58,289 nucleotides of DNA from Candidatus Zixiibacteriota bacterium (GTDB taxonomy: Bacteria > Zixibacteria > MSB-5A5 > UBA10806 > 4484-95): assembly GCA_029932605.1 (NCBI GenBank), contig JAOZPT010000010.1, positions 1-58,289 of the forward strand, read 5' to 3'. Each line of letters starts with the position of its first letter. Position 1 is the first letter of the stretch. The notes below the pieces were generated by a model. The model did no database searches, was not told the origin of the DNA, and saw nothing but the letters and a program-made list of their open reading frames with translations. The translations under genes and the position numbers were made by a program. Of the stretch, positions 15,424-47,925 are shown piece after piece.

Positions 15424-16296
15424 TTACATCCCTTTTGCTGATAATACTACAAAGACCGTTTTCAGGATTATTTTAAAATCCATTAAAATTTTCAAATTTC
15501 GAATGTAGTCGATATCATATTTGACCTTAAGCCTCACATCATCCTCAGATTCATCATACTTATGTTCAACCTGTGCAAGACCAGTTAGTCCGGGCTTAAC
15601 CAGAAGACGTTTTTCATAATTATCAATACTGTTTTTAAGCTTTCTTATAAAGAATTCTCTCTCTGGTCTAGGCCCCACCAAGCTCATATCACCTTTTAAT
15701 ACATTAAATAACTGGGGTATTTCATCGATACGCGTAGCTCTTAAGAAAGCACCTATTCTGGTAATACGTGGGTCTTTTTTCTTTGCCCAAACAGGCCCGG
15801 AGGTTTTCTCAGCATACCGATGCATTGTCCGAAACTTAATAACCATAAACGGTTTGCCAAAGCCAGCTTTTTTACGGCGGTCGGCCATCCCCATCTCTTT
15901 CTGAACTTTAATATTCAAACGGCGACGATTTATACCAATCCTCTCCTGACGATAAAAAACTGGTCCCGGTGAATCCAGCTTAATCAATATCGGAATTACT
16001 ATGAAAAATGGTACTGTCAAAATAAGACCAATAAAAACCCCAACAACATCAATTATACGTTTAATTGCCCATCTGAAACTATAAGCATTAAACGATTTCG
16101 TGATGGATAAAGGCTTAAAAAGAGATATCCTTTTAATAACATTAAAAACAAAAACTAAATTTTTTATTAAACATCCAGCCCAAAAAGCTTTGAGCCAGTT
16201 TATAAAATTATTCCAATATCTTGAAAATCCACCGCAAACTAAAACCTCTTCCCAATACTGACAAAATGGATTTGCAACAGGACTTTGATATCTCAC
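15424..16296 (-). CDS. Priming sugar transferase (polyprenyl-phosphate hexose-1-phosphate transferase family)
   Basis: KRIID, IKLDSPGPVFYRQERIG, KFRTM, DPRITRIGAFLRATRIDEIPQLFNVLKGDMSLVGPRPE, VKPGLTGLAQV; GTG start with AAGGAG SD. Confidence 0.93.
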   Translation of the reverse strand: MRYQSPVANPFCQYWEEVLVCGGFSRYWNNFINWLKAFWAGCLIKNLVFVFNVIKRISLFKPLSITKSFNAYSFRWAIKRIIDVVGVFIGLILTVPFFIVIPILIKLDSPGPVFYRQERIGINRRRLNIKVQKEMGMADRRKKAGFGKPFMVIKFRTMHRYAEKTSGPVWAKKKDPRITRIGAFLRATRIDEIPQLFNVLKGDMSLVGPRPEREFFIRKLKNSIDNYEKRLLVKPGLTGLAQVEHKYDESEDDVRLKVKYDIDYIRNLKILMDFKIILKTVFVVLSAKGM

Positions 16297-16348
16297 ACCT
16301 TCTCCTTAACATAAGTTAATAACATTCATCATTAAAATTCAATATTAC

Positions 16349-16363
16349 GCAAATTATATGCCA
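16349..16363 (-). promoter_or_regulatory. sigma54 (-24/-12) promoter of the priming sugar transferase
   Basis: Minus strand TGGCATATAATTTGC (GG-N10-GC), about 50 bp upstream of the start codon, in a 260-bp AT-rich intergenic region. Confidence 0.8.
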
Positions 16364-16557
16364 CCAAGACCATAATTAAAAAAAAAGAAACATAAAAGAG
16401 TAAAACGTAAAATATTACATAACACATTGTGATACGGGTTGTTAGCAGAGAGTGATGTTTATTATAAGATATTTATAAAGTTCTTTTTGATTATTAATTA
16501 TTGCAGCAATTAAAGATATATTAATCTAATGCATGAGTTTTCATAATGTATGCAATA

Positions 16558-17265
16558 CTATTCACCTTTCCCCCCTGCTTTTTTATGGTAATACTTATAA
16601 CCATAATACTTTGAACTATAATAGAATGGCAGAACAGAATCAAAATCATTTATAACTGCCCCAAGGATTTTGATGTTGGAATTAATTAACAGGTTAGTGG
16701 TTCTCTTGACAACCTCTTTTTTAGTTGTTCCTGCTTTGATAACCAGCAGAACTCCATCAACCTCGCTGGCTATTAAAAGGGGATCTGATACAGGAATAAC
16801 TGGCGGTGCATCTATAATTATAAAATCAAAGTAAAATTTGAGTTCCTCAGTTACTTTTCTTATGTTTTCCTGATTAAAGATCAAAGTAGGGCTTTCACTT
16901 ATTCTACCAGCAGTAATTATCTTCAAACCGGAAATAGAAGTATCTTTAATAGTCTTACCAACTTTGCACTTCTTTTCAAGTATATCAGACAAACCTTTCT
17001 CGAGGGGAAGCTTAAAAAGTACATTTATCATTGGTCGGCGCAAGTCAGCATCTAAAAGAAGCACTTTTCCCTCTTTAGCCTCGGCCATAGTTATCGCCAG
17101 AAACGATGATATCAGGGATTTTCCCTCCTCGATGGTCGAAGATGTTACAAGCACTGATTTTAACTGGTCATTGTCAGATTTCTTTATATTCGAATACAAA
17201 CGTCGAAACTCCGTTGCCTCCGGTGATTCCATATCATAAAAGCTGGCAATTGATTCAATTTTCAT
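16558..17265 (-). CDS. CpsD/CapB-type bacterial tyrosine kinase (cytoplasmic Wzc domain)
   Basis: EFRRL, Walker A TSSTIEEGKS, LLLDADLRRP, IIIDAPP, C-terminal Tyr cluster FYYSSKYYGYKYY. Confidence 0.93.
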   Translation of the reverse strand: MKIESIASFYDMESPEATEFRRLYSNIKKSDNDQLKSVLVTSSTIEEGKSLISSFLAITMAEAKEGKVLLLDADLRRPMINVLFKLPLEKGLSDILEKKCKVGKTIKDTSISGLKIITAGRISESPTLIFNQENIRKVTEELKFYFDFIIIDAPPVIPVSDPLLIASEVDGVLLVIKAGTTKKEVVKRTTNLLINSNIKILGAVINDFDSVLPFYYSSKYYGYKYYHKKAGGKGE

Positions 17266-18374
17266 TTTAAAATAGCCTTCAAAAGTGTTTTTAACCCCTT
17301 CAGTTCATTTTGTATAAGCTTCAAGTTTTTCATGGCAGTTTTATATTCAGGATTGATCTTCAAAGCTTTCTGGTAAGCCTCGACAGCATGCTGACTATAA
17401 AGTTGTGCCATAACAGCATATGCCATTCCTAAATCATTATAAAGGTCCGGATAGTTTGAGTTGATCTCAAGAAGTTTTTGTATTTTTTTAATATGATTTA
17501 CCACGACCTCTTTACTTAAGTGACCATTACTTAATAAATACTCAAGATGAAAATAATAATTATTTTTGAGAAATTTCCCTCTTATCGTCTTATCATAACC
17601 CTTACTTAAAACCTTAAAAGCACCATCAAGGTCCTTACTTTTTAAGGCGTTGAGCCCCTGCTGAAAATATTCATTATTAAGGGTTGAATTAAAACCTACC
17701 GATTTTCTCAGAAGCTTTATCGCGTTTTCCTCAAGGTTCTGGGCAAGGTCATAGTCATCTTTTTTTATGCCATTTAATATTATGGCCAGGGCGAGATTGT
17801 AATAAGCTTCACCATAATATATATTAAGATCGATAGCTTTCTCGAAGCTTTTCGACGCCTGATAACACTTACCCTGCTTTAAAAGCACCGTACCAAGATT
17901 GTTGTGGTAATCCGGGAAATCAGGTTCCATCTCAACAGCCTTTATTAGATATTCATGAGATTTCTGATAATCCTCAAGCACTATACATGTAAAACCAAGA
18001 TAATTATACAAACGTGAATTTCTGGCATCCAGCTTTATAGCTCTATTGAGTATCTCTAAAGCTTCCTTATACAATTTCTGGTCTAAAAGGGACACCGCCA
18101 GCATCTCCAACACAGCGACGTCGGTTTCATCCTCCATTTGTTCATAAAATTGGCTAAGGCGTTGTAGCCTTTCATAATGGGCATTGTGGTATTTCTCCAG
18201 GATATTAATGGCCTTATCGTTATTACTTAATAACTTAAACTTCACCAAATTGATGGGGTTGCCACTTTCATAAAGAACGCAGGTTCCCATACTTGTATCA
18301 GGGTTAGCTGAGGTTTGAAGGAGAAATTCCTTGCCCATCCCTTTTAGTTTGTCAGATAACGTTAATTGTTTCAT
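17262..18374 (-). CDS. Cytoplasmic TPR-repeat protein
   Basis: TPR signatures such as PDFPDYHNNLGTVL, YGEAYYNLAL, YPDLYNDLGMAY, ALKINPEYKTA; no signal peptide. Confidence 0.85.
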   Translation of the reverse strand: MKQLTLSDKLKGMGKEFLLQTSANPDTSMGTCVLYESGNPINLVKFKLLSNNDKAINILEKYHNAHYERLQRLSQFYEQMEDETDVAVLEMLAVSLLDQKLYKEALEILNRAIKLDARNSRLYNYLGFTCIVLEDYQKSHEYLIKAVEMEPDFPDYHNNLGTVLLKQGKCYQASKSFEKAIDLNIYYGEAYYNLALAIILNGIKKDDYDLAQNLEENAIKLLRKSVGFNSTLNNEYFQQGLNALKSKDLDGAFKVLSKGYDKTIRGKFLKNNYYFHLEYLLSNGHLSKEVVVNHIKKIQKLLEINSNYPDLYNDLGMAYAVMAQLYSQHAVEAYQKALKINPEYKTAMKNLKLIQNELKGLKTLLKAILK

Positions 18375-18380
18375 GAAAAA

Positions 18381-19967
18381 TCAACCATTTTTAAATCTCA
18401 TAAAAATAATCACTACTGCCAAAATCAGGCATAGCAATACCCCCAAAAATATAAAACCCCTGCCTTTCTTTTTAGAATAGTAAGGAATTGATATGCGTGG
18501 TATTATCGCCAGAACCGGTATATTAAGGTAATTCTCGACATCCTCAACTTTTTTAAAAGAATCATCAAAATACTCAATTAACAGTATTGCTCCAAATCCT
18601 ACCATAATCCCGAGAACAAGACCCATGAATACTATTTTCTTGCGGTTGGGGCTTGTCGGTACCATCGGTAAAACAGCTGGTTGTATTATCATATACTTAG
18701 ACCGAGCCTCTATCTTCTTAGCGCTTTGTTCAATCGCTGCATATTGTGAATGCTGAACAAACAAGTTATAAAGTTCCCTGTATCGGTTCACCTCGGACTG
18801 AAGCCTTTCAAGAGTTATTTCGATATCAGGATTGCGTGTTAATCTCGATTTAATTCTACCGAGGCTCTGCTCCAGAGCTGACCTCTTGGCCTGAGTAAAC
18901 TCAATTTTCATCTCCAGAACAAGATAACGAACAATATCATCCCGAATATCATCGGGATATTCCTTGAAGACCCTGCCAACATAATTTATGATTTCACTTT
19001 CAATGGAGGCAAGCAGGTCTTTGGCATCTTTATTCAGCGCTATTACTTTAGCGTTACGCCAGTTATGACGGCTTAGAAGGTCAGCCAGTTTATCATTTGT
19101 ACTCATCAATTCATTTTTCAGTCTGACAATATCATTCTGTTGTTGAATAGTAGAAACATCGATCTTCTTTGAATATAAAATATACCTTAGGTCTGTCATC
19201 TCCTGTTGTGCTTCATCTATCTCGATATCTAAAGCCTCGATCACAGAAAGTATCGAATTCAAATTAAGGTTTAATACTTCTGCATCTCCATCAACTGAAG
19301 TTGTAATCATTTGCTGCCTGAACTTTTTCAGCTTATCCTCCGCTATACTTAGTTTTTCTTGATACACATTCAATTGGTCTTCAGTAAAAGAGATACTTCC
19401 TTGAATGCCAGCTAACTCCTGAGCAAGATTTTCTTCGAGGAATATTTCAGCCAATGTTTGTGTCATTTTCCGAGCCATAGTTGGTGAACTGGAAACTGCA
19501 GATATTCTGATTATATTAGAGCCCTCCATTCGCACATCTATTCTTTCACGAATCGAGGAAACCAAAAGGTTATCAGTAAGTTCAGCTGCGGAAACATCTG
19601 GCATATTCTTAATCTGTTCAGCTACGGCCTCTTTTATGGCCTTAGGTATAGGGATGTTAAGTTTGGCAATGAGGCATTTGATGTATTTCGTGGATCGAAT
19701 CTGATTGTATAGAATATTACGGATATCACTTGGGGAAAGCCTTCGCATCTGGTTTGCAGACTCAAGGCTTCTCTGAACTGTCGGCGGAAGGATATTGGGT
19801 TCATTTATCAAAATAGAGGTTGATGATTGATACTTCGGTGTCATAAAGAAAGTAACCAGAATAGCAGCAAGGGGAACGATGATAGCCGGCATAATTAAAA
19901 GCCATTTTTTCTTTAACAATATTTGCCAGTAATCCCTTATATTTATATTCTGGTAAGCCTCAGCCAT
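18381..19967 (-). CDS. Polysaccharide co-polymerase / chain-length determinant (Wzz/GumC family)
   Basis: N-terminal INIRDYWQILLKKKW plus TM and PKYQSSTSILI; long coiled coil; IIQPAVLPMVPTSPNR-TM-EYFDDSF...LNIPVLAIIP. Confidence 0.9.
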   Translation of the reverse strand: MAEAYQNINIRDYWQILLKKKWLLIMPAIIVPLAAILVTFFMTPKYQSSTSILINEPNILPPTVQRSLESANQMRRLSPSDIRNILYNQIRSTKYIKCLIAKLNIPIPKAIKEAVAEQIKNMPDVSAAELTDNLLVSSIRERIDVRMEGSNIIRISAVSSSPTMARKMTQTLAEIFLEENLAQELAGIQGSISFTEDQLNVYQEKLSIAEDKLKKFRQQMITTSVDGDAEVLNLNLNSILSVIEALDIEIDEAQQEMTDLRYILYSKKIDVSTIQQQNDIVRLKNELMSTNDKLADLLSRHNWRNAKVIALNKDAKDLLASIESEIINYVGRVFKEYPDDIRDDIVRYLVLEMKIEFTQAKRSALEQSLGRIKSRLTRNPDIEITLERLQSEVNRYRELYNLFVQHSQYAAIEQSAKKIEARSKYMIIQPAVLPMVPTSPNRKKIVFMGLVLGIMVGFGAILLIEYFDDSFKKVEDVENYLNIPVLAIIPRISIPYYSKKKGRGFIFLGVLLCLILAVVIIFMRFKNG

Positions 19968-19968
19968 A

Positions 19969-20925
19969 TCAATAATACCTTCTTATTATTATTGCTGTTG
20001 CTATTGATGTTACTAAACCTGGGATAATATATTCTGGAAGTCTTGACCAGAACGTTCGTTCTCGTCGAAAAGGAATTATTATTGTATCCTCCGGATGAAG
20101 TTTATACCTGGCAGGTTGTCCCTTTTTGATATATTCATCAAGGTTAAAACTTAAAACCGATGAATATTTCACATCTTTCATCACAATACTTATATTCTTA
20201 GTATCAGATAACTCGGTAATACCTCCAGCAGCGGCAATGGCGTCAACAAGTTCAAGGTTTTCAGAAAGGTTTTTGACACCGGGGTCATTTACAGCGCCAT
20301 AGATGAAATAAACATTTTTCCCCTTAAAGGTGGGACCAACAAGTAGTTCTGTTATCCCCCCATATGGAGAAACAGGAATATTTATCATGTCTTTGGCCTT
20401 TAGTTGTGGAAGACCAGCAAGGTCACCCTTGCGGAGGTGGTCAAGCACATCAACTTCTATAATCTTTGCCTTGTTATCCTCCTGGCGAATTATAGTAACC
20501 CTTGAAAGGTCAGCTGAGGAAGTGGCGCCACCAGCTTGGCGAATGACATCTAAAAGATTGGGGATTCGCTCAAAATGATATTCACCCGGCTCGTTTATCT
20601 CGCCAGATAACACAACGGTTTGGCTATTATACTCGGTCACAACAACGGTCGCCTGGGAAATCCTTGGATTATAAAATGAAACCTGTTCAACTATAGATTT
20701 GGATAGTTGATTTGTTGTAAGCCCAGCTGCTTTAATATCACCGATAATCGGTAGTGTTATTATACCATTTTCATTAACCCTGACTTCCGTATCAAGGTCT
20801 GGTTCTTGCCAGAAGCTTATACTTAATCGATCACTTACACCGATTTTGTACGGCTGATAATCCTGAGCAAATGATAACGCCCAACAGGCCAACATAATCA
20901 CAACTATTTTTTTATATGTCTTCAT
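19969..20925 (-). CDS. Polysaccharide export protein (Wza/Poly_export with SLBB domains)
   Basis: Signal peptide, YKIGVSDRL, GIITLPIIGDIKAAGLT, two SLBB repeats (GEINEPG...AGG; GAVNDPG...AGG). Confidence 0.9.
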   Translation of the reverse strand: MKTYKKIVVIMLACWALSFAQDYQPYKIGVSDRLSISFWQEPDLDTEVRVNENGIITLPIIGDIKAAGLTTNQLSKSIVEQVSFYNPRISQATVVVTEYNSQTVVLSGEINEPGEYHFERIPNLLDVIRQAGGATSSADLSRVTIIRQEDNKAKIIEVDVLDHLRKGDLAGLPQLKAKDMINIPVSPYGGITELLVGPTFKGKNVYFIYGAVNDPGVKNLSENLELVDAIAAAGGITELSDTKNISIVMKDVKYSSVLSFNLDEYIKKGQPARYKLHPEDTIIIPFRRERTFWSRLPEYIIPGLVTSIATAIIIRRYY

Positions 20926-22681
20926 ATATCCCTTTATCGGTTAATTGATGTTGAGAATTTCTCTTTAATTCCTCATCCTCCAACATCGAGCTGTTAAACA
21001 TCATCGAACGATTTCGCCCCTCGGCCTTAGCTTTCAATAAAGCCATATCAGCACAATATATCAAACGGTCAACTGTCTGGGCATCACTTGGATATATTGC
21101 ACCCCCTATTGAAATAGAGATTTTATACCCACCATCAACATACCCACTTACAAATTTGTAATTTTCAATTCTTTTCCTCAATCTCTCAACAAATATAAGA
21201 CAGTTAGCAAAACCTGTATCAGGCATAATTACACAAAACTCCTCGCCACCATAACGGCTTACTATGTCGATAGCCCGAACACTCCTGGTAACCAAAACCG
21301 CTAGATTTTTAAGCACCTCGTCGCCTGCCTGATGACCATAGGTGTCGTTGAAGGTTTTGAAATTGTCAATATCAAATATAACCATCGCCAACATCCGATC
21401 AAAACGTTTTGCTCTAAATATCTCCTCATTGAGCCGTTTGTAAAAATATCGGTAATTGTAAAGTTCGGTCATACTATCCGTATATGACATTTTCTCAATC
21501 AACCTGTATTGCTGGATATTACCAATAGCCAGTGATGTCATATTTGACATGGTTGAAAATACCTCAAGGTCAGCCTCGGTATAGCTTCCCTTTCCACTTT
21601 TATCCCCAATTAAAACAAATCCATATATCTTCCCACCAACATAGAGTTTTTCGATATGAGTAAACCCGAAGGCTAATGCCTTTTCCATAAAAGGATCACC
21701 GCTTTGTAAACCAGAGCTTACAACGGGCAAGACCATAACACGTTTTTTAGCTGCTAACAACTTGTATATTTCAGAGCCAGTAAGAAGTTCAAGCATCTGA
21801 ACATCGCGGGTAACCTGGCCGCTGGAGGCAGCGATTGTAAAAATACCGCTATCACTTTTACTTCTTCTTAAAATAGCTATACGTGAAGGTGAGAGAACCG
21901 AAGCGATAGAATTTAAATAAGTTTCTATGAGGCGGTGCTCATCGTAAATAGTAAATATCCTGTTGGAAATATCGAGAAACGAATGTAAGTTGAAATCTTT
22001 TTGTTTTACCTTGCTGTTTAAATTGGTTATTTCGATTTTAACCCTGTTCAATTCTTTTTCAAGGTCTCTAATTTTTTCCTGCCGCCTTTTGATGTTATTG
22101 TTACTGTGACATATCTCGTATAACAACGGCCAAACCGCCTGATTGAACTCATCGGATGCACAAAAGCGGGTTAGCTCTTTATGAGGATCTTCTCCCGCAA
22201 ACAAAACCCGTTGTTCGCTAAACTCATACAAAAAAAACAACAAATTCGAAATATCACTAGGAAGATCTGCCAAACGAGAAATCATTTTAATCTCATTTTC
22301 ACCCAAGACCACACCACAACCAGGATATTTCCCCCTGCGATTATTTGAATTTGATGAAAGCAAGAAGTTATTCACAAGTTCGATTCTAATCGGCTTTATC
22401 ATTCTCAATCTCAGCCCCACGCCCATCAATGGCAACAATATATTCCGTTCTGAACAAAACAACACAAAACGACCGAGTTTGAAATCTTTTTTAAAAGCCT
22501 CGGCAGCAATTAACACGGGGCTTTTTCGAGACTTACAGCGTACCGAGTTAAAAACCGACCGACAAACCTCGAATACTTTTTGTTTTATGGTCAGCTCGGA
22601 ACCCTTCTTGTACAAATCCATAGTTATTTTGCGAGTTTTCATTCGATGCTTACCAACCAATAAAACAACGGTAAGAATCAA
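20912..22681 (-). CDS. GAF-GGDEF diguanylate cyclase with N-terminal membrane anchor (start uncertain)
   Basis: TDSMTELYNYR, FDIDNFKTFNDTYGHQAGD, I-site RAID five residues before GGEEF; upstream GAF region and coiled coil. Confidence 0.92.
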   Translation of the reverse strand: MILTVVLLVGKHRMKTRKITMDLYKKGSELTIKQKVFEVCRSVFNSVRCKSRKSPVLIAAEAFKKDFKLGRFVLFCSERNILLPLMGVGLRLRMIKPIRIELVNNFLLSSNSNNRRGKYPGCGVVLGENEIKMISRLADLPSDISNLLFFLYEFSEQRVLFAGEDPHKELTRFCASDEFNQAVWPLLYEICHSNNNIKRRQEKIRDLEKELNRVKIEITNLNSKVKQKDFNLHSFLDISNRIFTIYDEHRLIETYLNSIASVLSPSRIAILRRSKSDSGIFTIAASSGQVTRDVQMLELLTGSEIYKLLAAKKRVMVLPVVSSGLQSGDPFMEKALAFGFTHIEKLYVGGKIYGFVLIGDKSGKGSYTEADLEVFSTMSNMTSLAIGNIQQYRLIEKMSYTDSMTELYNYRYFYKRLNEEIFRAKRFDRMLAMVIFDIDNFKTFNDTYGHQAGDEVLKNLAVLVTRSVRAIDIVSRYGGEEFCVIMPDTGFANCLIFVERLRKRIENYKFVSGYVDGGYKISISIGGAIYPSDAQTVDRLIYCADMALLKAKAEGRNRSMMFNSSMLEDEELKRNSQHQLTDKGIYEDI

Positions 22682-22762: not shown

Positions 22763-23563
22763 CTATTTTGAAATATTCCGGGTTCGTGCAAAATAAAACC
22801 TTTTTTTCTTAGATCCAAGGCCTGATTTTTTTAATGTCCACCAGACTTTGAAAAACCCCGTTCCCGGAAAATCCTTTTTAATTTCTTTTTTAATTTCAAC
22901 AACGCTGAGAAATGGGTCTTTCCCTACCAGCTCTAATATAGCTTCTTTAAGCGTCCTGGCCACTCTGGGGACATCACGTTTTACGCGAGAATGTTCACCT
23001 TTAGGAAAATCTAACTTGGAATCCCTGCTACGTTCTTTTGGCAAAGTTGCCCCAGCCAGTTTGTCGGAAACATCCCGGTCCCCAGAAACAGCTGGCTTAG
23101 CCGATGATCCCTGAACCCTAACATCAGGTGAAACCTTTCCTGATATCGGTATCGGTTCCGGTTTTTTAACCTCGTGTAATCTCAGCCCATTCTGCGGTTC
23201 ACCGGCAAAATCAGCCTTGGCTTTTTCTATGTTATCATATGCTTTAAGAATGCTGTCGAACTCCAATAGTTCGAAAATCTCATAAACATTGGGTATCATT
23301 CGAGCAAGTTTAATATCGCCATCGTTCAAGCGTATCTCTCTGATGTTTGAGATAAAAATACCCCAACCGGCTGATGAAATATAATCGACACCACCGAGGT
23401 CAACAATAATTTTGAATTTCTTTTGAGCAAGAAGAGAGTTTGTAACCTCTTCCAACTGCGTAGCAGTCATTGTATCGATTACTCCATCTACACGGATAAT
23501 GGTGATTTCACCATCAATCTGTGTTGTCTGGGTTGTTTCTACGGAAATTTTGATATCGCTCAT
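22763..23563 (-). CDS. STAS (anti-anti-sigma) protein with linker and C-terminal HTH-like domain
   Basis: STAS motif IIVDLGGVDYISSAGWG with phospho-acceptor Ser; low-complexity linker; basic helical tail ILELVGKDP...LKKSGLGSKKKRF. Confidence 0.88.
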   Translation of the reverse strand: MSDIKISVETTQTTQIDGEITIIRVDGVIDTMTATQLEEVTNSLLAQKKFKIIVDLGGVDYISSAGWGIFISNIREIRLNDGDIKLARMIPNVYEIFELLEFDSILKAYDNIEKAKADFAGEPQNGLRLHEVKKPEPIPISGKVSPDVRVQGSSAKPAVSGDRDVSDKLAGATLPKERSRDSKLDFPKGEHSRVKRDVPRVARTLKEAILELVGKDPFLSVVEIKKEIKKDFPGTGFFKVWWTLKKSGLGSKKKRFYFARTRNISK

Positions 23564-23566
23564 CTT

Positions 23567-24310
23567 TTACCTATCCAATCGTTCCAATGCCTCTTTGGAA
23601 AAATGATAATAATCATACGCACCATTAGAATATGGAGCGTATTCAAATATGGTTTTATTATTCATCTGCGACTCTTTTATCTGGGTGTTGACCCTGATAG
23701 CTGTCGTAAAGACTTTTTCATCGTACCTTTCTTTCAAATTACTCAGTATCTTTTTTGAAATCCTAGTCCTTACATCAAAAAACGTCGGCAAAATACCGAG
23801 CAGTTTTATATCTCTACCCATTTCAGAAGTTACCTCATCGATTATCTTCAGTGTTAATGCCGCTCCCTCCAAAGCGAAATAGTCCATTGACACGGGAAGC
23901 AAAACCTTGTCGATATAATACAATATGTTTGAATTTATTACATTTATCGACGGGGAGCAATCTAAAATTATTATTTCAATACCGGTGAATCTATTCAATG
24001 CCATAGCTAACGGGTATTCGCTTTCGGGTTGTTGGGCCAAGTAACGTTCCACCATATAAATATCGCTTTTGCCAGAACCCACGAGATAAAGGTCTGGACG
24101 AATATTATAAATATCCACCTTATCGCATAAGAGAAGGTCTGATAATCCCTGGGCTCCATTCAAATCAAAAGCTAAGGAGGTCGAACCTTGAGCATCACAG
24201 TCAATCAGCAATGTTTTCCTGCCCATCATGGCCAGGGCATGGGCAAAGTTAATGGCCGTAGTGGTCTTACCGGTTCCCCCCTTAAAAGCTGTAACTGCTA
24301 TCTTGTGCAT
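23567..24310 (-). CDS. ParA/Soj family ATPase (no parB in the window)
   Basis: Deviant Walker A KGGTGKTT, LLIDCDAQG, IILDCSPS, ILPTFFDVRTR, IFEYAPYSNGAYDY. Confidence 0.92.
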   Translation of the reverse strand: MHKIAVTAFKGGTGKTTTAINFAHALAMMGRKTLLIDCDAQGSTSLAFDLNGAQGLSDLLLCDKVDIYNIRPDLYLVGSGKSDIYMVERYLAQQPESEYPLAMALNRFTGIEIIILDCSPSINVINSNILYYIDKVLLPVSMDYFALEGAALTLKIIDEVTSEMGRDIKLLGILPTFFDVRTRISKKILSNLKERYDEKVFTTAIRVNTQIKESQMNNKTIFEYAPYSNGAYDYYHFSKEALERLDR

Positions 24311-27120
24311 TATTTATTGAACTTTTCAGTTAATCTCTTCTCGTATTCTTTAAAATCGCTTAAAACATTCTTTGGACTATTTCCTTTAATGGCTTTTTCT
24401 CTAATATCGATTTTTTTACCACTTATCCCATCCGCCTTGATGGGTTTTATAATTTGTTTATAACCAGGTTCTTGTTTGGAAGTTTCATCTTTTTTTGAGG
24501 TTAAGCCTTCATTCATCTTGGATACTACCGACTGCAACATGCAAGCGATCTCCTTGCCTCCTTCAAGCTCCTCAAGTTCCTTGGCAATTTCATTATAAAT
24601 GTCATTCCCGCTAACAGTTGGACCGATCTGCTTTAATTGTGAGATTATTCTTCCAGTCTCCCTCGTGATCCTTTTTACCTCGCGGCTTTCGATATTCTTC
24701 TTTAAATCTTCCGTATATTGCATTCTATCAAGTCTCTTACGTTCTTCACGTAACATCTCTTTTTCCAAAATTTCTTTTTGTTCCGGTTTAAGTTTGCCAA
24801 CTCTCTCGACATAAGCCAAACGACGTCTGCGTGTATTAAGTCTCATATTTACCAACTCATCATAGATGTTCCCAACCGAGTAGTTCTCTCCTCGTTTGGC
24901 AAGCGTTTTCTGAATTCTGGTTGCCCCAAATTCAGGATTTTGTCTAATGATTTCAAGTATCATTTTACGTGTGTTATATGGCAGAATTTTAATAGAAGCC
25001 TCGGCCCTCAACCTTTTATTCAGAAGCCCTGAGTCACCATGTTCTTTCCATCTTTTGCGATACTTATAAAAAGACGCCAGAGAAACTCCCACCTTTTTAC
25101 AAGCCTCTTCCGCCGACATCCCCTCATCCTCGACCATTTTCAACAAGCGTTTGCGCTTCTCAAGTATAAGCTCGTCAACCATTATTTTTTCCTTTATCAC
25201 CACCAGAGTGATATCATCATTCTGGGGAGCATTTCCGGTAAACTGAACGATGTCTTTGTCAAGAGCGGTAGCGAACTCCTCAGGTGATAAGTGAGCGTTT
25301 TCCTTTATAAAATTGATCAGCCTGTCATTACCATATTGCTCGGATCTGTTGTTCATCGCCTCGGTTATTCCATCAGTGTAAACCACAAGCATGTCATCTT
25401 TTTTCAATTTCAGCTTATCGGTTTGAATGCTTCCTCCAAATGAAACATCATCGGGCAGAGTTAAGCCAAGAGGCATTCCTTTCGGGTTTAGGAAGTAACA
25501 TTTAGCAGTATCCTTACGATACAGAATCATCGGATTATGTCCAGCTGAGGCGAAAGATATCTGGCGGTTTTTTGAATCAAGAATCATGAAAAATATCGTA
25601 ATAAACATCCCCTTTTTCACATCCTCGGCTACGAAATCATTAACTTTGGCCAGGATATCATTCGGCGAGTGGTTATCTCTTGCCTCGAGTCTCAAGGCAG
25701 TGCGAATCATTGTCATAACCAGTGACCCCGGAACCCCCTTACCGGAAACATCGGCTACAGCTATTCCAAGCGAGTGTTCATCAATCCACACGAAATCAAA
25801 ATAATCGCCTCCGACATCCTTTGCTGCCCGATATATTGCAGCAAGTTCGTACCCCTCTATCTCAGGGAAACGTGAAGGTAACAAAGCATGCTGAATATCC
25901 TGGGCAACCTGCATTTCCTTTTGCAAACGTTCCTGTTCGACTATATTCGCCTGGGCTGATTTGAATTTAAGGGTGATCTCGTTAAAAGCGCGGGCAATCT
26001 CCGAAAACTCGTCCGAACCATCAACCGGCAAGGTTTCCTCAAGGTTGCCCTGGCCTATTTTCAACACACCCTCGGTGAGTTTCTGAATTGGCTTTACAAA
26101 ATAGTAAGAGAGAAGGTAAACAGCTCCCAAACCAACTATAAGTCCCAAAAAGGCGATAACAAGTAGAACATTTCTTGCCTTGATAAGCTGGTTAGAAAGA
26201 ACAGCTTGAGAAAAGCCGAAGTTAATCTTACCTAACTTTTTATTATTCTGTACCATATCTGTTATTAAATGATAAATATTCCCATATTCTTCACTTTCAT
26301 AATATTGAAATGTATCGGTAATGGCCGAATCTATGGTTGGAGGATAACTATATGGTGATAAAATACTCTGCGGTCTTAAGGCATCAGCCCAGATTAAACC
26401 ATTCCTGTCAACAACTGTGATATATTTCAAATTGGGATTACCTTGTAAAGCCAAGCTAACCAAAGCTGATAGTTCAAGTTCGTTACCAACAACCATTTTA
26501 TCCGCTGAATTCAAAGTGGTGGTGTTAGCGAAATTTCTGGCTTCGGAAAAGAAACGTTCTTTGATAGAATCAGCATTTCTACCGTTGTAATAAAAGAATA
26601 TCACTCCAACAATCACAAAAACCACCAACGAAGCCCACATGGCGAATTTCAGGCGTATGGAGGTTCCTCTGGGTTTTAAGATTATCGGTTTTTTAGGGGG
26701 TACTTTCTTAACCATGCGAAGTTCATTTTCACCATCGCGGGAAAAATAATCTACGGAATCCATTATCTTGCGGATAAGATACAACCCCAATCCACCTTTC
26801 CTGCCGGTCTTGATATAGCGGTCAAGATTCGGGGAATCAGCACGATTGAAATCAAACCGCCGTCCCTTATCGTAAATGGAAAATACGATCTTATCCGGAA
26901 ATATTTTTAATTTTATCCTTATGGTTCCAGGGCCGTAAAGGTAAGCGTGGCGTATTACGTTGGTGCAGGCCTCTTCAACAGCCAAAAGGATGCCATTTCT
27001 TTCCTTATTGCTTACATTTACATCGACAATGGCATCTTTAACTGACCGACGGATATCCTCCAGCATGTTCTCATCAGCTACAAAGCTCATGAATATCTCT
27101 ATCGGTTTTCTAAATGCCAC
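24310..27120 (-). CDS. Hybrid membrane signalling protein: RsbW-like kinase, 2TM sensor, HAMP, SpoIIE/PP2C phosphatase, tandem HTH
   Basis: Kinase: EEACTNVIRHAY, DKG, GGLGLYLI. Two TM helices, then HAMP (KPIQKL...DEFSEIARAFN). PP2C: VGGDYFD, ADVSGKG, SAGH, YTDGITEA, DDITL. Then HTH region. GTG start with GAGGTGG SD. Confidence 0.9.
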   Translation of the reverse strand: MAFRKPIEIFMSFVADENMLEDIRRSVKDAIVDVNVSNKERNGILLAVEEACTNVIRHAYLYGPGTIRIKLKIFPDKIVFSIYDKGRRFDFNRADSPNLDRYIKTGRKGGLGLYLIRKIMDSVDYFSRDGENELRMVKKVPPKKPIILKPRGTSIRLKFAMWASLVVFVIVGVIFFYYNGRNADSIKERFFSEARNFANTTTLNSADKMVVGNELELSALVSLALQGNPNLKYITVVDRNGLIWADALRPQSILSPYSYPPTIDSAITDTFQYYESEEYGNIYHLITDMVQNNKKLGKINFGFSQAVLSNQLIKARNVLLVIAFLGLIVGLGAVYLLSYYFVKPIQKLTEGVLKIGQGNLEETLPVDGSDEFSEIARAFNEITLKFKSAQANIVEQERLQKEMQVAQDIQHALLPSRFPEIEGYELAAIYRAAKDVGGDYFDFVWIDEHSLGIAVADVSGKGVPGSLVMTMIRTALRLEARDNHSPNDILAKVNDFVAEDVKKGMFITIFFMILDSKNRQISFASAGHNPMILYRKDTAKCYFLNPKGMPLGLTLPDDVSFGGSIQTDKLKLKKDDMLVVYTDGITEAMNNRSEQYGNDRLINFIKENAHLSPEEFATALDKDIVQFTGNAPQNDDITLVVIKEKIMVDELILEKRKRLLKMVEDEGMSAEEACKKVGVSLASFYKYRKRWKEHGDSGLLNKRLRAEASIKILPYNTRKMILEIIRQNPEFGATRIQKTLAKRGENYSVGNIYDELVNMRLNTRRRRLAYVERVGKLKPEQKEILEKEMLREERKRLDRMQYTEDLKKNIESREVKRITRETGRIISQLKQIGPTVSGNDIYNEIAKELEELEGGKEIACMLQSVVSKMNEGLTSKKDETSKQEPGYKQIIKPIKADGISGKKIDIREKAIKGNSPKNVLSDFKEYEKRLTEKFNK

Positions 27121-27146: not shown

Positions 27147-27175
27147 ATTATAGGCCAAATGTTGCCCAAAGTAAA
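27147..27175 (-). promoter_or_regulatory. sigma70-type promoter of the signalling/EPS operon
   Basis: TTTACT (27175-27170), 17 bp spacer, TATAAT (27152-27147). Confidence 0.65.
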
Positions 27176-27340: not shown

Positions 27341-29161
27341 TTACTTTTTTAAAGACCTTGCCCTAGCCTGCTCGATATTTCGTATCAGGTTAGGGTTATT
27401 TGGATAATAATCTAATAGTAAGCGCCACAGATCAAGTGCCTTATCATACTCGCCGGCTTGATATTTCTCCATACCCTGGATATATATCCGCCAATGTTCA
27501 TCATTTGCCTTGATATCCTCTAAAGTTGTTTGCTTGGTCATATATTGTGCAAGCCGGCGTTTGAGGCTTATTGCACCCTCCGACCGAGGATTTAAGATTA
27601 ATGCCGAGTCAACCTGGACCGCAGCACTTTCATATTCACCATCGTTGAACATTCGTATCGCCTTATCAAGATATTTTGACGATTCAAACATTCGATAAAC
27701 CTCTGCCTGATTCCGGATCGCCCAACTATCGTCAGGAACAACATGCAGGATTTCATTTAAAACTGCAATAGCGCGTTCGTAATCTCCGTTTTGTATATAC
27801 TCTGCAACTAGGCGCCTTTTTCCAGTAATTTTGTCTTCATTGATCTTTTCTATATCCGCAAGCATTCTAATCGCCTCCCGGTTCTCAGGATCAATAATTA
27901 ACGCTAACTCAAATTGCTCAGTCGCCTTATCGTATTGCTTCTTATGATAATAGTTGTTTCCAAGTTGTATTTGCTTATCAACCAAGTTACTGATATAATC
28001 CTTACCAACCTGCTTGGCCATCTCTTCTTTCATTTTATTAAGCAACTCCAAAACCTTAACCCGGGCCTGACTGTTCTGGTCATCTAAACCCAACACTCTA
28101 TAATATGCCTCGATCGCTTCATAGGTTTTTCCGTTCTGCTCATGCTTGGTGGCGATGGCAAGCTCTTTTTGTATTTTTTTAATAACTTCTTGTTCCTGTT
28201 TTTGTTTAAACTCCATTACTTTCTCATTCGCTATGGCCTTCTCTCTTCGCTCTCTTTTAACCTCAATCGGTGTACCAAAATCGATGCTCAATGACAACCT
28301 ATGCGATGTTCCGAGGTCTGAAAGAGTTGCATAAGCATAATCAAATCTGAAACTGTAATATGAAACTCCCGCGCCAATAGTAATCTTATCCCCCATATAC
28401 CCAAGGCGGGCAAAAACCATATCTTTAACACCAAGCTCGCAACCAGCATAAACATCCGTCTCATTGTTTTCCGTTTTCTCGACATCGGCACTAATCAAAA
28501 GCCCATATTTACCGGAAAACGCTTTCGAATATGATAATCCGCCCCTGATTGACCAGGGAAATCTTTGTTCCAACCTGTGAAGTTTGATACGAGGACCACT
28601 CAGGTCAGACAGTTTCAAACCAAAAGAAGTCCCTTTTAAGAATGGAAGAAAATAAATTATACCCAAATCTAAACCGAAACCGGTGTCTTTATAATCCTCG
28701 ATATCGAAATAAACACCTTTAACGGTGATTCCCGCCAATATTTTTCTCGTAGGTGAAAAGCCATAACCAAGCAAAAACAAGTCCTGGCGACTGGAAAATG
28801 TGCCGTTTGTTGCATAATCAACAATTTTGTCAAAATCATCACTTGAAATATCTCCAATACCTAACCCAAAACCTCCGGCCATGGTGGGATAAGCAACTGA
28901 TAGAAACTGATATCGGGTATCCATAAACAAACTCATGTGGAATAACTGCACCTGTGGTCGCTGTAATACAGCCAGACCGGCCGGGTTCCAATATACCGCT
29001 CCAGAACTGTTAATGAAAGCAACCGAAGCTCCTCCCATACCAAGTTGTCTAGCGCCTACACCAACGGCAAACGGTGATCGATATCCCCCATCATTAGCTA
29101 TGGCAATGGCTGAAACAAACAAAACTGTAATGGTCATGAATAATCGAGATTTTCTTACCAT
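27341..29161 (-). CDS. PorV/PorQ-family outer-membrane barrel fused to a C-terminal coiled-coil/TPR region
   Basis: Signal peptide, GVGARQLGMGGA...AVYWNPAGLA, barrel end FDYAY...LGTSHRLSLSIDFG, then about 310 aa of TPR-like helices. Confidence 0.85.
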   Translation of the reverse strand: MVRKSRLFMTITVLFVSAIAIANDGGYRSPFAVGVGARQLGMGGASVAFINSSGAVYWNPAGLAVLQRPQVQLFHMSLFMDTRYQFLSVAYPTMAGGFGLGIGDISSDDFDKIVDYATNGTFSSRQDLFLLGYGFSPTRKILAGITVKGVYFDIEDYKDTGFGLDLGIIYFLPFLKGTSFGLKLSDLSGPRIKLHRLEQRFPWSIRGGLSYSKAFSGKYGLLISADVEKTENNETDVYAGCELGVKDMVFARLGYMGDKITIGAGVSYYSFRFDYAYATLSDLGTSHRLSLSIDFGTPIEVKRERREKAIANEKVMEFKQKQEQEVIKKIQKELAIATKHEQNGKTYEAIEAYYRVLGLDDQNSQARVKVLELLNKMKEEMAKQVGKDYISNLVDKQIQLGNNYYHKKQYDKATEQFELALIIDPENREAIRMLADIEKINEDKITGKRRLVAEYIQNGDYERAIAVLNEILHVVPDDSWAIRNQAEVYRMFESSKYLDKAIRMFNDGEYESAAVQVDSALILNPRSEGAISLKRRLAQYMTKQTTLEDIKANDEHWRIYIQGMEKYQAGEYDKALDLWRLLLDYYPNNPNLIRNIEQARARSLKK

Positions 29162-32100
29162 ATTACAGCGACCTTACATTTGGCAGTTTCACCGGTTGAA
29201 TTATTGGTTACAACAATATAATAAACACCGCTTAACACCTTAATAGCCGAAGAATTCAGACCATTCCACTTCACAGCGTTTTCGCCATAATGGGCTCCAG
29301 CAACTCCCTCACCGGTGCTTGGTGTTGCGCGATACTCCCAGACTTTCTCGCCATATAAGTTATAAATAATAAAATCGACAACGGCTTCATCAACAAGGTT
29401 ATAACCTATTTCCAGCTCTCCCTCGGATGCTAAATAAGGGTTGTTATTGACCCTGATCGATGTTATAAAATCATCTCCTAGTACAGCTAGGTTACCTGTC
29501 TCAATTAAGAAATCCCCGCCGTCGGGTAAAACAACCTGTATATACTGTTCATAAACATCCTCGACCACGGCTCGGGCAAAGATATCATCCGAATCGAGGG
29601 TTATACTGAATACATCAATTGCGGGGTTCTCAATCAAAGTGACACTCAATACTATTTCAACAGACATATCAGGTTCTATCAATATACCGGGGTCAAAGAT
29701 GAAGCTTACGGTCGAATCGTTAAACTGACCATTATACGGAATACCATTAACATACAAAACCGAGGCTGAAAATATCTGGCCAGGGTTGACGACATCATGG
29801 TTGTAAAAAACCCGATATGTCAGCGATGTTAAAGCCACCCGATTTTGACCTATCTCGGTCGAGTTTTCAAGGGAAAATCTATAAACATTAATTTGCTGAC
29901 TACTAACGGCTGCTCCCCTGATTGGCACAGGATTGTGTAATATCAGCCGGGAAAGTTCATTTTTTAATATGATATCGAAACCGGTTGAATCATTCAACGC
30001 AAACGCAGACTCACCAGAATTTAAGTCAATGGGTATAGAATTTATGATTACCGCTACTTCGGTTCCAGAAAGAATTTGCGAATCAGGAGTAATGACCATC
30101 CATTGGACAGGAACACCTGGAGTAAAAACCCTGGTTGTCGGTTCATCTGTTGAAAAATCATCGTTTTCAAACAATATCGTAAGTTCACCATCGCCGGTTT
30201 CAGCCTGGCCAACGTTTTCAACCAAAGCCTCCAGAACGAAATACCCACCTGGCTCAATTACCCTGTCAAGGGCAGATGGTGGTTGAGTTATATCAACCCC
30301 CAAAGTAAGTGTCGCTTTCTCAACAACCTCAACTGGTATCCAGATAGCTGTGTCATATACCGAATCGCCGGTGTTGCTATCGAAACTCCAGCAATCGATA
30401 CGCAGGGAATCGACGGTAACATCCGATGGAGCATTTACCTGCCAGGTAATCACCTGTCCTGATAGTTCCTGGACCACCGGGTCAACACAACCAAAACCAG
30501 ATGGCAGAATCACTCTGGCAAAACTCGAGCTGACATTGCCGGATGGAAATAATGAATCGGTTATCGTAAAAAACTGTGATGTCGATATAATGCCGTCTGT
30601 TGCTCCCGATGGAGAGGTTATATAAGCACTATGATTTATTGATGCCCGGTCTGTAACCACTACGGTTATTGTCATCGTTGAGTCAGTCCCCAGAGCAGTT
30701 GAAGAGTCGTTTAAGTCAACGAAAGTGCCATTAAAAGTAACTTCTATGGCCGAAGAGGTTCTCACCGATGATGGAGCGGTCACATCCCATGAAACAACCT
30801 GTCCCGGTATGAAATCACGGGCCAAAGAATCCGCCACCACAAATCCGGTATCTCCTCCAAAATCTATTAGAAGCTGGTCAGAACCGGAATAGCTATCACT
30901 TCCAGAATGGGAAACCTGTCCGAATACTGTAAACAACTGATTGGTCGAAAGGGAATCATCCAAAACATAAATCGTATCTATCCAGAAAACCACTGGCTCT
31001 TCGATAACAGCCATAGCAGAGTTATCAAGAGGCGATGCGATCTGGGCATCCTGGCCCGATATCCTGTTTATAGCATAGATTACACTGCATTGAAATATCT
31101 CGGTTGGATCGGGAATTGAGTCGGCCGTGATATTATAATCGAACGTCGCACCCAGGAGGCCATCAATTGAGCCAACATCCAAAGTTTCAGCAAACGAAGA
31201 ACCACCATCGGAAATAAGTCTCAGATAAATCGAATCAACAGGTTCAATACCCAAGTTGCTGATATAACCGTGAATTATGAATTGTTGCATTGTATTAACC
31301 CTGGGGGAATTATAGCATACCGTATACAATGAATCTAACCTTATTTGCCCTGGGGTAATAACGTTTACTGAATCTATGTTTAAGTCAACAAAAAAAGTGT
31401 GCTGATTTTGAATACCGGCAATATGAACTACCGGCTGGTAGGTTCCCGGTGCAAACCCCGATGGCACCACTGACGAGCAAAAAGTCAACGATGTATCTCC
31501 TGTCTGGATTTCATCGATTCTTACTCCCGAAGAGGTGTCGATAAGTGCGTCAAACATATTTATGCCATCGTTAAAGAATATTCTAGTCAGGTTGTGGTCA
31601 AGAAACAGAGTCGCCTGGCCGGAGTTATTCACCCGAACAGAAAAAGAAACCTCTGAACCGGTCAATACAGTATCCGGCGCAGAACTACCTGGTTCATAAG
31701 CTATGTTAACAGCTGTTTGTACTAAGACGCTATCAGAAAGTAAAAAAGAATCAACAACTGTGCTGTTCAATTCGGTTCCATAAATATAAAACCATACAGG
31801 ATAGATTCCTCCAATAAAAGTCGAGGGAATCTGGAGTTGGTCAAATGAGAGATTCCCCTGGGCGCTAGGTTCGATCACTACGCTTTGATATAAGTTGGTA
31901 TTATATTCTATGGTGCCATCGGTAAAATAAATATAGGAAGTATCATCGAGACTTATAGAGGCATCGCCATCATTTCGAACAACAACGCTGAAGCTGTAAT
32001 CCAAGCCGGTTGACACTCCAATCGGCGATAATGTGCTATCGAGATAAACAAGCTGAGAAGCAGAAAGCACAGTCAGCGTATCTGTAAATACCTCGAGGCT

Positions 32101-39565: not shown

Positions 39566-39717
39566 CTCGGTCTTAAATCGACCACTGGGTATCTAAAAGA
39601 TTTAAGATTCCGTTTATAAAGATGGGTAAAAAAGTGATGTTCGATATAAATGATGACTATGAATGGATTAAAAAGAACAAAATATTATCTAAAGATATTA
39701 CCGAATACCGATTATGA
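39566..39717 (+). pseudogene. Excisionase/HTH_17-like remnant
   Basis: LGLKSTT, then after a frameshift HWVSKRFKIPFIKMGKKVMFDINDDYEWIKKNK; no intact start. Confidence 0.65.
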
Positions 39718-39778
39718 AACTTATTCCCTTGACTAAGGAAAAAAATTGAATTAATTATATTTTTATTAAGGGATTCAA

Positions 39779-40112
39779 ATGGATGTTTTCAAAAAGGGGA
39801 AAATGTGGTACATCGACTATCATGTCGATGGGCAGAGGAAACGTGAAATTGTAGGATACAGCCACAAAATGGCTGAAAATGTCCTTGCTAGAAGGAAAGT
39901 TCAGATTGCAAAGGATCGTTTCTCAGATGTTGCTAAAAAGGCGAAAACTTCTTTCAAGATCATTTCAGACATATACATAGAATATGCAAAGAATAACAAG
40001 TTTCACCAACGCGGTAAAGTCAATGGAGTATTTTGATGGACACTATTCGGACACCCTGGCCATTTCAGAGCGTCCAGTCGATAAGCGTAATCATATGAAC
40101 AAACAAGAAATT
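39779..40112 (+). pseudogene. Internally deleted tyrosine integrase
   Basis: 39779-40000 encodes an integrase-type N-terminus (KKGKMWYIDYHVDGQRKRE...LARRKVQIA...F...YIEYAK). A second frame from 40008 gives an integrase-like tail (NAVKSMEYFDGHYSDT). No catalytic core. Confidence 0.75.
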
Positions 40113-45080: not shown

Positions 45081-45263
45081 GGAGTAACCTGTATATGTCT
45101 TTGATAGAATTCGTTTTGCAAAAAACCATTTTTATGATTAAAATTACTTGAATTTTTTGAATCAGGGCTCAGTTAATTTTAACATACTATACTATCAATT
45201 CCCGATTAAATTATTTAAACCATTAACTCTTGGATGCCGATTAAGTTATTGCTGAGGAATATA

Positions 45264-45653
45264 ATGACCAGACAGATATTGGTGATAGATGACCAACCCG
45301 AGGTTGGGGCACTTATTGGTAATTACTTAAAGCAAATCGGATTTATACCGGTTGTGATGTCCAGTGTAGAAGAGGCATTGGATAATTTTGACCCGTCGGA
45401 GTATCTGATGATAATAGCTGACGTCATTATGCCCGGTAAAAACGGATTTGACCTTGTCCGTTTTATGTGTAGCAACCATCCCCGGATACCGGTTGCTTTG
45501 ATATCGGGTTATTTTGACAAGGAGATGGAAAACCTGCAAAAGGTATTCGGGATCGATAAAATATATCGCAAGCCCGTGTTTCTTAGAAGTGTTAAGGAGA
45601 TGGTTGCCGATTCCCTTATCAAACTTGCTACTCAAACGGCCTTTTCATCTTAG
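45264..45653 (+). CDS. Single-domain response regulator (REC)
   Basis: ILVIDD, ADVIMPGKNG, LISGY, RKP; GAGGA SD before ATG 45264. Confidence 0.9.
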   Translation: MTRQILVIDDQPEVGALIGNYLKQIGFIPVVMSSVEEALDNFDPSEYLMIIADVIMPGKNGFDLVRFMCSNHPRIPVALISGYFDKEMENLQKVFGIDKIYRKPVFLRSVKEMVADSLIKLATQTAFSS

Positions 45654-45707
45654 TTTCAACATTAAAGGAAGTTAATGACCCGATAGCACAAAACGAAATA
45701 CGGGGTT

Positions 45708-47024: not shown

Positions 47025-47446
47025 ATCAACCCGTTAGGATAGTGTTTCCTGTATCCGAAATATCTTTAAAGATAGCCGATGAGATATTTGATGTTATCGC
47101 CAGGATTGCCACCCCAGATGCTAAAAAGAGACATCATATATTAACGGTTTTATCAGAGGCTTTCAACAATGCTTATATCCATGGCGACAAGATACTTAGC
47201 GACGGGGGTATTGAATTTGAAGCCCATTTCGATGAAAATAAATTTTATGCATCCATTATAAACAGAGGTAAAGGTTTTGCCGATAGTAAAATGAAAGGTT
47301 ATTCTGTTGATACTGACATTGCTGAATCAGGTCGAGGCCTTAAGATAATAAAAGAGTTAAGTGACAGAGTTGATTTTAAGCAGGTAGATGGTAATAGATT
47401 TGGTATATTTTTAGAGTTTAATCTTTCTTCTGAGAGCGGATATTAA
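47021..47446 (+). CDS. RsbW-like anti-sigma factor / Ser kinase (HATPase_c)
   Basis: LSEAFNNAYIHG, INRGKGF, ESGRGLKII. Confidence 0.85.
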   Translation: MNQPVRIVFPVSEISLKIADEIFDVIARIATPDAKKRHHILTVLSEAFNNAYIHGDKILSDGGIEFEAHFDENKFYASIINRGKGFADSKMKGYSVDTDIAESGRGLKIIKELSDRVDFKQVDGNRFGIFLEFNLSSESGY

Positions 47447-47474
47447 AAGCTAACTTGATACTATGGAGGACGTA

Positions 47475-47807: not shown

Positions 47808-47925
47808 CGATTATGTGTTTTGGCATCCTATTTATTGCTTATAGAAATGAAGTAAAGCGACATAGTCAGATACTTGAATATAGCAAAGATTGATGTACGG
47901 ATTGCCGAAACCATTGGAATTTATT

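Follow-up and report, generated by a model that had tools for sequence, protein, structure and literature searches.

Tandem IS481-type helix-turn-helix module on a membrane kinase-phosphatase of Zixibacteria and its homologue on a neighbouring STAS protein

Introduction

What is a pair of DNA-binding-type domains doing on a membrane-bound signalling enzyme? The question is raised by a gene for a predicted membrane kinase/phosphatase in a 58,289-nt stretch of DNA from a Candidatus Zixiibacteriota bacterium (contig JAOZPT010000010.1 of assembly GCA_029932605.1; the whole stretch is called the window below). In the encoded protein a PP2C phosphatase domain is followed, in the same reading frame, by a tandem helix-turn-helix (HTH) module resembling the N-terminal region of IS481 transposases. 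An original prediction, made from the sequence alone, saw in it a domesticated transposase module that makes a membrane-tethered sensor a DNA binder. Two parts lay beyond that prediction: an N-terminal kinase domain of the same protein and a homologous HTH on a STAS-domain protein encoded nearby. Partner-switching systems normally act via sigma factors or protein partners. We present evidence that the HTH pair is an old and selected part of the enzyme, and discuss what the two HTH-bearing proteins may do together.

The HTH module and the enzyme that carries it

The domain order of the 936-aa protein is RsbW-type kinase, two membrane helices, HAMP, PP2C, HTH1-HTH2 and a helical tail (Table 1); a short conserved linker joins PP2C to the HTH pair. 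The open reading frame (ORF) is unbroken and the coordinates of HTH1 and HTH2 agree with the interval 24800..25160 in which the IS481-like tandem HTH had been placed. Pfam families HTH_23, HTH_28 and HTH_29 match residues 655-703 above their cut-offs and HTH_32 matches residues 684-753 under its cut-off. The NCBIfam model of IS481 transposases, NF033577, covers residues 655-766 with its positions 1-112 of 284 (E 2e-16); the match ends at position 112, with a score of 60 bits vs a cut-off of 224. The profile searches that had been recommended as a check thus bear out the similarity, the N-terminal tandem HTH being the part that the enzyme has in common with IS481 transposases.

The rest of an IS element is missing. 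Pfam reported no rve/DDE family for the kinase ORF, there is no frame break, and of 43 inverted repeats between positions 22500 and 27500 the 25 longest were inspected, with none bracketing the module, so that the absences noted originally hold (for repeats, among those inspected). The module occurs as a single copy in each of 32 genomes, with fixed synteny, and its GC content at third codon positions (0.44) is close to that of the kinase and phosphatase domains (0.45-0.46).

Both enzymatic domains have the motifs expected in a partner-switching system. The ATP-binding motifs of the serine kinase are intact, with E50, N54, H58, D84, G86, G110 and G112 invariant in 56 of 56 aligned orthologues; the metal-binding aspartates of the phosphatase (D439, D457, D583, D635 and D636) are likewise invariant in all 56. 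In HTH2 residues E755, R760, L761, N762 and R767 are invariant in 56/56; this set was retrieved partly by the same motif, the patterns of the species-genome scan being the two HTH motifs, so the invariance is inflated. In distant kinase-phosphatases other domains take the place of the helical tail: three fused STAS domains follow the HTH pair in P0112 and P0125, and TPRs follow it in P0214, L073 and L093.

Age, spread and selection

A search with residues 630-800 gave 101 hits from 2202 candidates. Each hit has a SpoIIE domain, with the caveat that the query took in the PP2C end; the named proteins among the 101 come from Zixibacteria and KSB1. Scanning of species genomes with a single protein found nothing, while an alignment-based profile scan yielded 61 loci, 60 of them with the fusion (a contig end truncates some) and the remaining one with a true transposase. 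Labels among these loci include Zixibacteria, KSB1, Calditrichota, Krumholzibacteria and Bacteroidota; 18 of the 61 have no phylum label and some labels look loose. Stand-alone or shorter forms of the module amounted to two matches among 179 candidates, both on 1.2-kb contigs.

The HTH tree has 37 of 53 splits in common with the tree of the enzyme core, the core parts having 38 in common among themselves. The ratio of nonsynonymous to synonymous substitution rates (dN/dS), a test proposed with the original prediction, is 0.076 (0.052-0.107) for the HTH pair over six disjoint pairs of orthologues, vs 0.036 for PP2C and 0.115 for the outer domain; a seventh pair, L087-L083, was left out as a compositional artefact (pN 0.44). 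The HTH pair is therefore under purifying selection.

In an unbiased sample of 151 genomes of the phylum the enzyme core is present in 127, and the HTH pair scores strongly in 32 (one copy per genome, in six families). A single branch separates the proteins with the pair, those of other phyla among them, from the rest (FastTree support 94; long branches are present). If the root is placed between phyla, the pair was lost within Zixibacteria, and the tree thus points to loss in most Zixibacteria over recent gain. Orthologues without the pair end shortly after PP2C, although L112 and L114 retain degenerate HTH pieces. That orthologues might end at the PP2C domain had been named as an observation that would speak for a recent IS scar; this turned out half true, as 95 of 127 orthologues have no strong match to the pair, while the direction favoured by the tree is the opposite one.

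These data bear directly on the possibility that the module is a functionless scar of a recent in-frame IS481 insertion. IS481 elements score above cut-off in 25 of the 151 genomes and the genome under study has one partial copy, which, with the many orthologues ending after PP2C, would fit such an event. The recurrence of the fusion (60 of 61 loci) in a conserved gene order, the low dN/dS, the congruent trees and the degenerate intermediates L112 and L114 refute it, and we leave it next to no probability. The kinase HTH pair is thus old and selected. It also appears to be accessory and dispensable: most Zixibacteria would have lost the pair and kept the HTH on the STAS side.

The STAS partner

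The second gene downstream of the kinase gene encodes a STAS protein with a C-terminal HTH tail. A Ser63-Ser64 motif is present in 25 of 25 aligned STAS proteins, so the linked STAS protein expected of a partner switch is at hand; Ser64 is presumably the phospho-acceptor, an assignment that we take from the SpoIIAA/RsbV motif. The tail is a conserved domain. With distant loci included, its profile aligns with that of HTH2 (hhalign 97%, E 3e-11), and of the genome's 24,365 reading frames the kinase is the best non-self match of the tail. The distant loci were needed: pairwise BLAST of HTH2 against the STAS protein gave no alignment and narrow profiles reached only 21%. The predicted fold of the tail has the same four helices as HTH2, is wingless, and has a basic third helix (+3.0).

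STAS-HTH genes were found downstream of the kinase in 42 of 60 fusion loci. Across the phylum sample they occur in 129 of 151 genomes, in single copy in all but one, compared with 32 for the kinase pair; the STAS-side HTH is thus the more widely kept and the more basic copy.

In the window the STAS gene is fused, with no A-run in its linker. A conserved run of 9-11 As lies in the linker between STAS and HTH in 50 of the 112 STAS loci inspected, all 50 in families f9 and f16 (L107, L170-L175, L184, L185, L187, L188, L190-L220 and L222-L229). The HTH is in the -1 frame in 38 loci, in frame in 10 and in +1 in two. The 112 loci include a few duplicates and 40 of the loci were chosen by open-frame length, mostly short, so these counts are not a survey. 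Maintenance of the run whatever the frame suggests programmed slippage or frameshifting that would yield both a STAS-only and a STAS-HTH form; the frame differences may also come from homopolymer assembly error or phase variation.

Origin of the module

Was a transposase the donor of the module? A full-library profile search retrieved 3028 proteins. The 148 top matches examined comprise 67 PP2C-linked proteins and 81 others, and none has a DDE domain by the transposase profile. By eye, 69 of the 81 were assigned to one family; a GT2 glycosyltransferase was shown in 21 of 40 matches sent to Pfam. The closest non-sensor relatives are the heads of giant GT2 proteins (P0137, P0144, P0155, P0158, P0161, P0166, P0181 and others), two N-terminal copies of the module being present in 66 of 70; one such record is named Woesebacteria. 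No publication describing HTH-headed giant GT2 glycosyltransferases was found.

Profile similarity of HTH2 is 99.1% to the GT2 heads vs 96.8% to 28 sampled transposases; for the STAS tail the values are 98.5% to GT2 heads, 97.2% to kinase HTH2 and 95.5% to the sampled transposases. In a tree with transposases only, the kinase and STAS HTH copies group together (support 99/89), and an insert is shared by 17 of 60 kinase and 11 of 42 STAS rows vs none of 28 transposase rows. The origin of the STAS tail as a duplicate of kinase HTH2 was considered and set aside: once GT2 heads were added the sister grouping was not recovered, with p-AU 0.36 (not rejected). All these origin trees rest on ∼70 columns, and either duplication or separate recruitment may account for the kinase and STAS copies.

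The idea of a domesticated transposase therefore survives in part. IS481 similarity, lack of a catalytic domain, age and purifying selection agree with it, and from the breadth of the family we infer the direction from transposase to sensor; a transposase is a candidate for the direct donor. Elsewhere in the same genome a partial IS481-family ORF (G000:C85:73724-74356) is weakly similar to the module.

Gene neighbourhood and upstream regions

The features of the locus are listed in Table 1. Of the genes around the kinase the one kept most constantly is that for PorV-TPR, ahead of the polysaccharide genes.

Table 1. Features of the kinase-phosphatase locus (positions in the window; res, residues of the kinase-phosphatase)
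Feature	Positions	Strand	Remarks
Polysaccharide export cluster: Wza-like, Wzz-like, TPR protein, tyrosine autokinase, WcaJ-like transferase	15424..20925	-	
Diguanylate cyclase	20912..22681	-	GGEEF motif, RxxD site read from sequence
STAS protein, linker and C-terminal HTH, predicted acceptor Ser64	22763..23563	-	Pfam STAS E 2e-18
STAS-tail HTH	22778..22960	-	homologous to kinase HTH2; net charge +11; below Pfam cut-offs
ParA/Soj-type ATPase	23567..24310	-	one-base overlap with kinase gene end
Membrane kinase/phosphatase, 936 aa, with tandem HTH and helical tail	24310..27120	-	single unbroken ORF
Helical tail	24505..24795	-	kept in close Zixibacteria; TPR or STAS extensions instead in distant forms
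HTH2 and fourth helix (res 713-772)	24805..24984	-	third helix acidic
HTH1 (res 653-703)	25012..25164	-	net charge +6; conserved basic aromatic recognition helix
PP2C/SpoIIE phosphatase	25192..25923	-	Pfam SpoIIE res 448-643, E 7e-52
HAMP domain (res 337-381)	25951..26112	-	Pfam
Two predicted membrane helices flanking variable extracytoplasmic sensor domain (∼res 157-339)	26104..26652	-	hydropathy; low identity
RsbW/SpoIIAB-type Ser kinase domain (HATPase_c_2, res 14-138)	26707..27081	-	Pfam, E 4e-26
Sigma-70-like promoter, 10/12 consensus, upstream of kinase gene	27147..27175	-	
PorV/PorQ-family barrel with TPRs	27341..29161	-	directly upstream in 53/54 fusion loci having upstream DNA

A ParA orthologue is present in exactly the 32 of 151 genomes that hold the kinase HTH pair. 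This coincidence, together with the overlap of the two genes, would fit a model in which the pair, as a DNA binder with no preferred sequence, works with its dedicated ParA to place the sensor complex over the nucleoid. Only six related families supply the 32 genomes, hence few independent events; loci labelled KSB1, Calditrichota and Bacteroidota hold the pair with no adjacent ParA; and the helical tail, which may itself be the ParA partner, co-occurs with ParA about as well. We regard such positioning as improbable.

A sigma-70-like site similar to the one upstream of the kinase gene is present in 16 of 63 orthologous upstream regions vs a 1% background. The motif TAAA-N15-GCCGA, which we take to be the sigma-28 consensus, is over-represented in front of genes across this genome (20 occurrences vs 6.6 +/- 2.6). 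Six of 33 loci have it ahead of wza vs a 1.5% background, a pattern derived from the same loci and hence circular; no sigma-28-like site was found upstream of wza in the window. Sigma-28-like promoter motifs upstream of wza were noted in L066-L071, L107, L113, L116, L118 and L119. The genome encodes FliA above cut-off (a FliA-family sigma factor at G000:C66:35393-36184), flagellins and a weak FlgM match, and these observations suggest that in some lineages a motility-linked sigma factor drives the export genes. Three related loci alone have a palindrome, GTAAAG...CTTTAC, at the -35 site; the window lacks it.

Several other observations were made in passing. The region 27341-35037 (- strand) also holds a 1960-aa protein whose C-terminus weakly matches FlgD-Ig. 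A second partner-switch cluster, at 45234-48381 (+ strand), consists of a receiver, a HAMP-PP2C protein, a SpoIIAB-like kinase, a short STAS protein and a receiver. At ∼39700-40100 a tRNA-like sequence was seen by eye beside an apparent short integrase-type remnant. Loci L049, L060, L065 and L221 have one frame break each in the kinase, PorV or STAS gene, probably assembly errors.

Proposed mechanism

We propose, giving the proposal an even chance, a partner switch similar to SypE and HsbR systems, with a CapS-like DNA-binding STAS output over cyclic di-GMP (c-di-GMP) and export genes and with the kinase HTH pair as a DNA tether. An envelope signal would act through HAMP to shift the kinase/phosphatase balance, and the enzyme would toggle phosphorylation of Ser64 on the neighbouring STAS-HTH protein. 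The phosphorylation state would set the oligomer state of that protein and hence its DNA occupancy, which would control the adjacent c-di-GMP and polysaccharide-export genes; tethered by its own HTH pair, the enzyme would make the switch act locally. Architecture, catalytic residues, synteny, homology of both HTHs and purifying selection are observed; the steps from signal to DNA we infer from SypE/SypA, HsbR/HsbA and CapK/CapS. The IS481 match, low dN/dS, congruent trees, the basic and widespread STAS tail and the kinases fused to three STAS domains speak for the proposal, as do the IS481-type model neighbours, the A-run at the STAS-HTH join (if cells make both STAS forms) and the precedent of CapS.

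A number of results weigh against it. DNA binding by either HTH is a prediction from sequence and fold, and the structural search recommended originally had a divided outcome. The AlphaFold2 model has two helical HTH domains with a flexible linker (pLDDT 86, pTM 0.51) and its Atlas model neighbours are of IS481 type (TM 0.45-0.56); searches of solved structures ranked Pax, TnsB, Tc3 and ArgR, none significantly, Foldseek did not reach E <= 0.001 with the HTH-pair or the STAS-tail model, the best VIA-align Z of 6.7 is in the range of common arrangements, and the best hit of a PDB sequence search had an E of only 0.11. The third helix of HTH2 has a net charge of -0.6 and 2.6 acidic residues vs +1.2 to +3.0 in the other three groups, and on the enzyme HTH1 would more likely be the part that contacts DNA. 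Eighteen of the 60 fusion loci have no STAS-HTH downstream, and three quarters of the phylum orthologues (the 95 of 127) do without a recognizable pair. Inspection by eye and a pattern scan, with no de novo motif finder used, recognised sigma-70-like and sigma-28-like elements but no operator in orthologous upstream regions; the recurring sigma-28-like motif is also present where STAS has no tail (L118 and L119) and is therefore not evidence for an HTH operator. Finally, the polysaccharide link is seen only in Zixibacteria-like loci, the sampled distant loci having housekeeping genes downstream.

Part of the same evidence would suit HTH folds that serve as protein-docking surfaces, with an output like that of HsbR-HsbA-HsbD: STAS would switch partners, from FlgM/sigma-28 to the diguanylate cyclase and back, with DNA binding playing no part. 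The acidic third helix of HTH2 with its invariant E755, R760, N762 and R767, the flagellar genes, the sigma-28-like motif (enriched genome-wide, circular at wza) and the GGDEF gene following the STAS gene, for which PMC5085249 offers a precedent, are in line with docking. It is made unlikely, in our estimation, by the basic recognition helices kept in HTH1 and the STAS tail, by the lack of a sigma-28-like site at the wza gene of the window, and by HsbA and SypA, which act as STAS-only proteins and so leave the HTH retention in 129 of 151 genomes unexplained.

The pair might instead be an input domain, a nucleic acid such as single-stranded DNA (ssDNA) setting the kinase/phosphatase balance; according to PMC13373217, ssDNA activates CapK, an HTH-STAS-GHKL kinase. 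The attachment of the pair to PP2C through the short linker is compatible with this role. However, in CapK the ssDNA site is predicted to be outside the HTH, between STAS and GHKL, the present protein already has an extracytoplasmic sensor with HAMP, and no defence operon was annotated among 41 window proteins scanned (the PADLOC library was not searched). We consider an input role very improbable, and return to the partner switch with a DNA-binding STAS output.

Implications

A wider and tentative reading, which we hold to be rather doubtful, is that a domesticated IS481-type HTH family ties surface-polysaccharide membrane enzymes to the chromosome. Under it the kinase-phosphatase and its STAS substrate would co-occupy DNA in the Fibrobacteres-Chlorobi-Bacteroidetes (FCB) group, the glycan synthase of the Candidate Phyla Radiation (CPR) would itself bear the module twice, and one clade of Zixibacteria would use programmed slippage at the A-run to tune the form of the substrate that binds DNA. 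DNA-binding STAS output was shown only recently, for CapS. Transposase-type HTHs on both kinase-phosphatase and substrate would be a second, much older route, and a candidate bacterial transposase domestication kept across several phyla. The host organisms are uncultured and function rests on inference; what can be put to the test are the two domains, small and soluble, the predicted phospho-site and the candidate recoding site. A literature search found no description of this system; most subscription papers and the CapK/CapS datasets were outside its scope.

Comparison with known systems

The N-terminal region of IS481 transposases (NF033577; Pfam HTH_28/HTH_32) has two HTHs in the same order and with the same spacing as the kinase module, and one IS481 subgroup likewise has a subsequent L-x-T-x-x-x-R helix. 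Unlike IS481, the kinase module has no DDE/rve domain or terminal repeats, is single-copy, is inherited with the enzyme and has an acidic third helix in HTH2; GT2 heads are nearer to it than the sampled transposases. The HTH-headed giant GT2 proteins have the same tandem module, including the fourth helix, on a polysaccharide-linked enzyme; they differ in the duplication of the module, a basic third helix and another host group.

Among partner switches, SypE/SypA comes closest in the layout of the enzyme and in its polysaccharide setting. SypE has a central receiver domain. The system described here differs in having a membrane sensor with HAMP and HTHs on both partners, SypA being STAS-only. 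In the syp locus of Vibrio fischeri, SypE combines a serine kinase and a phosphatase in one protein with a STAS target (PMC10120452; PMC8256260), so that bifunctional enzyme, STAS target and polysaccharide locus are all shared. The HptB-HsbR-HsbA-HsbD system of Pseudomonas aeruginosa, as far as the available text of PMC5085249 describes it, has a bifunctional kinase/phosphatase, a STAS switch and a linked diguanylate cyclase, the same three components, in a flagellated host with FliA. The present locus, unlike it, has no Hpt or receiver input, is membrane-anchored, and has HTH modules and a ParA for which that text describes no counterpart.

CapK/CapS resembles our locus in that an HTH-bearing anti-sigma-type kinase adjoins a STAS-HTH protein upstream of an operon; CapS is a STAS-winged HTH repressor released by its kinase (PMC13373217). 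The architectures differ, however: CapK is HTH-STAS-GHKL with no PP2C, whereas the order here is GHKL-TM-HAMP-PP2C-HTH-HTH. The STAS protein is fused to an HTH of DNA-binding type by fold, with DNA binding predicted, but its tail is a wingless four-helix IS481-type HTH and not a winged one; and in place of an adjacent immune operon the neighbours are ParA, GGDEF and polysaccharide-export genes. The system would thus work like the known partner switches, and is neither an IS481 element nor a CapK/CapS system.

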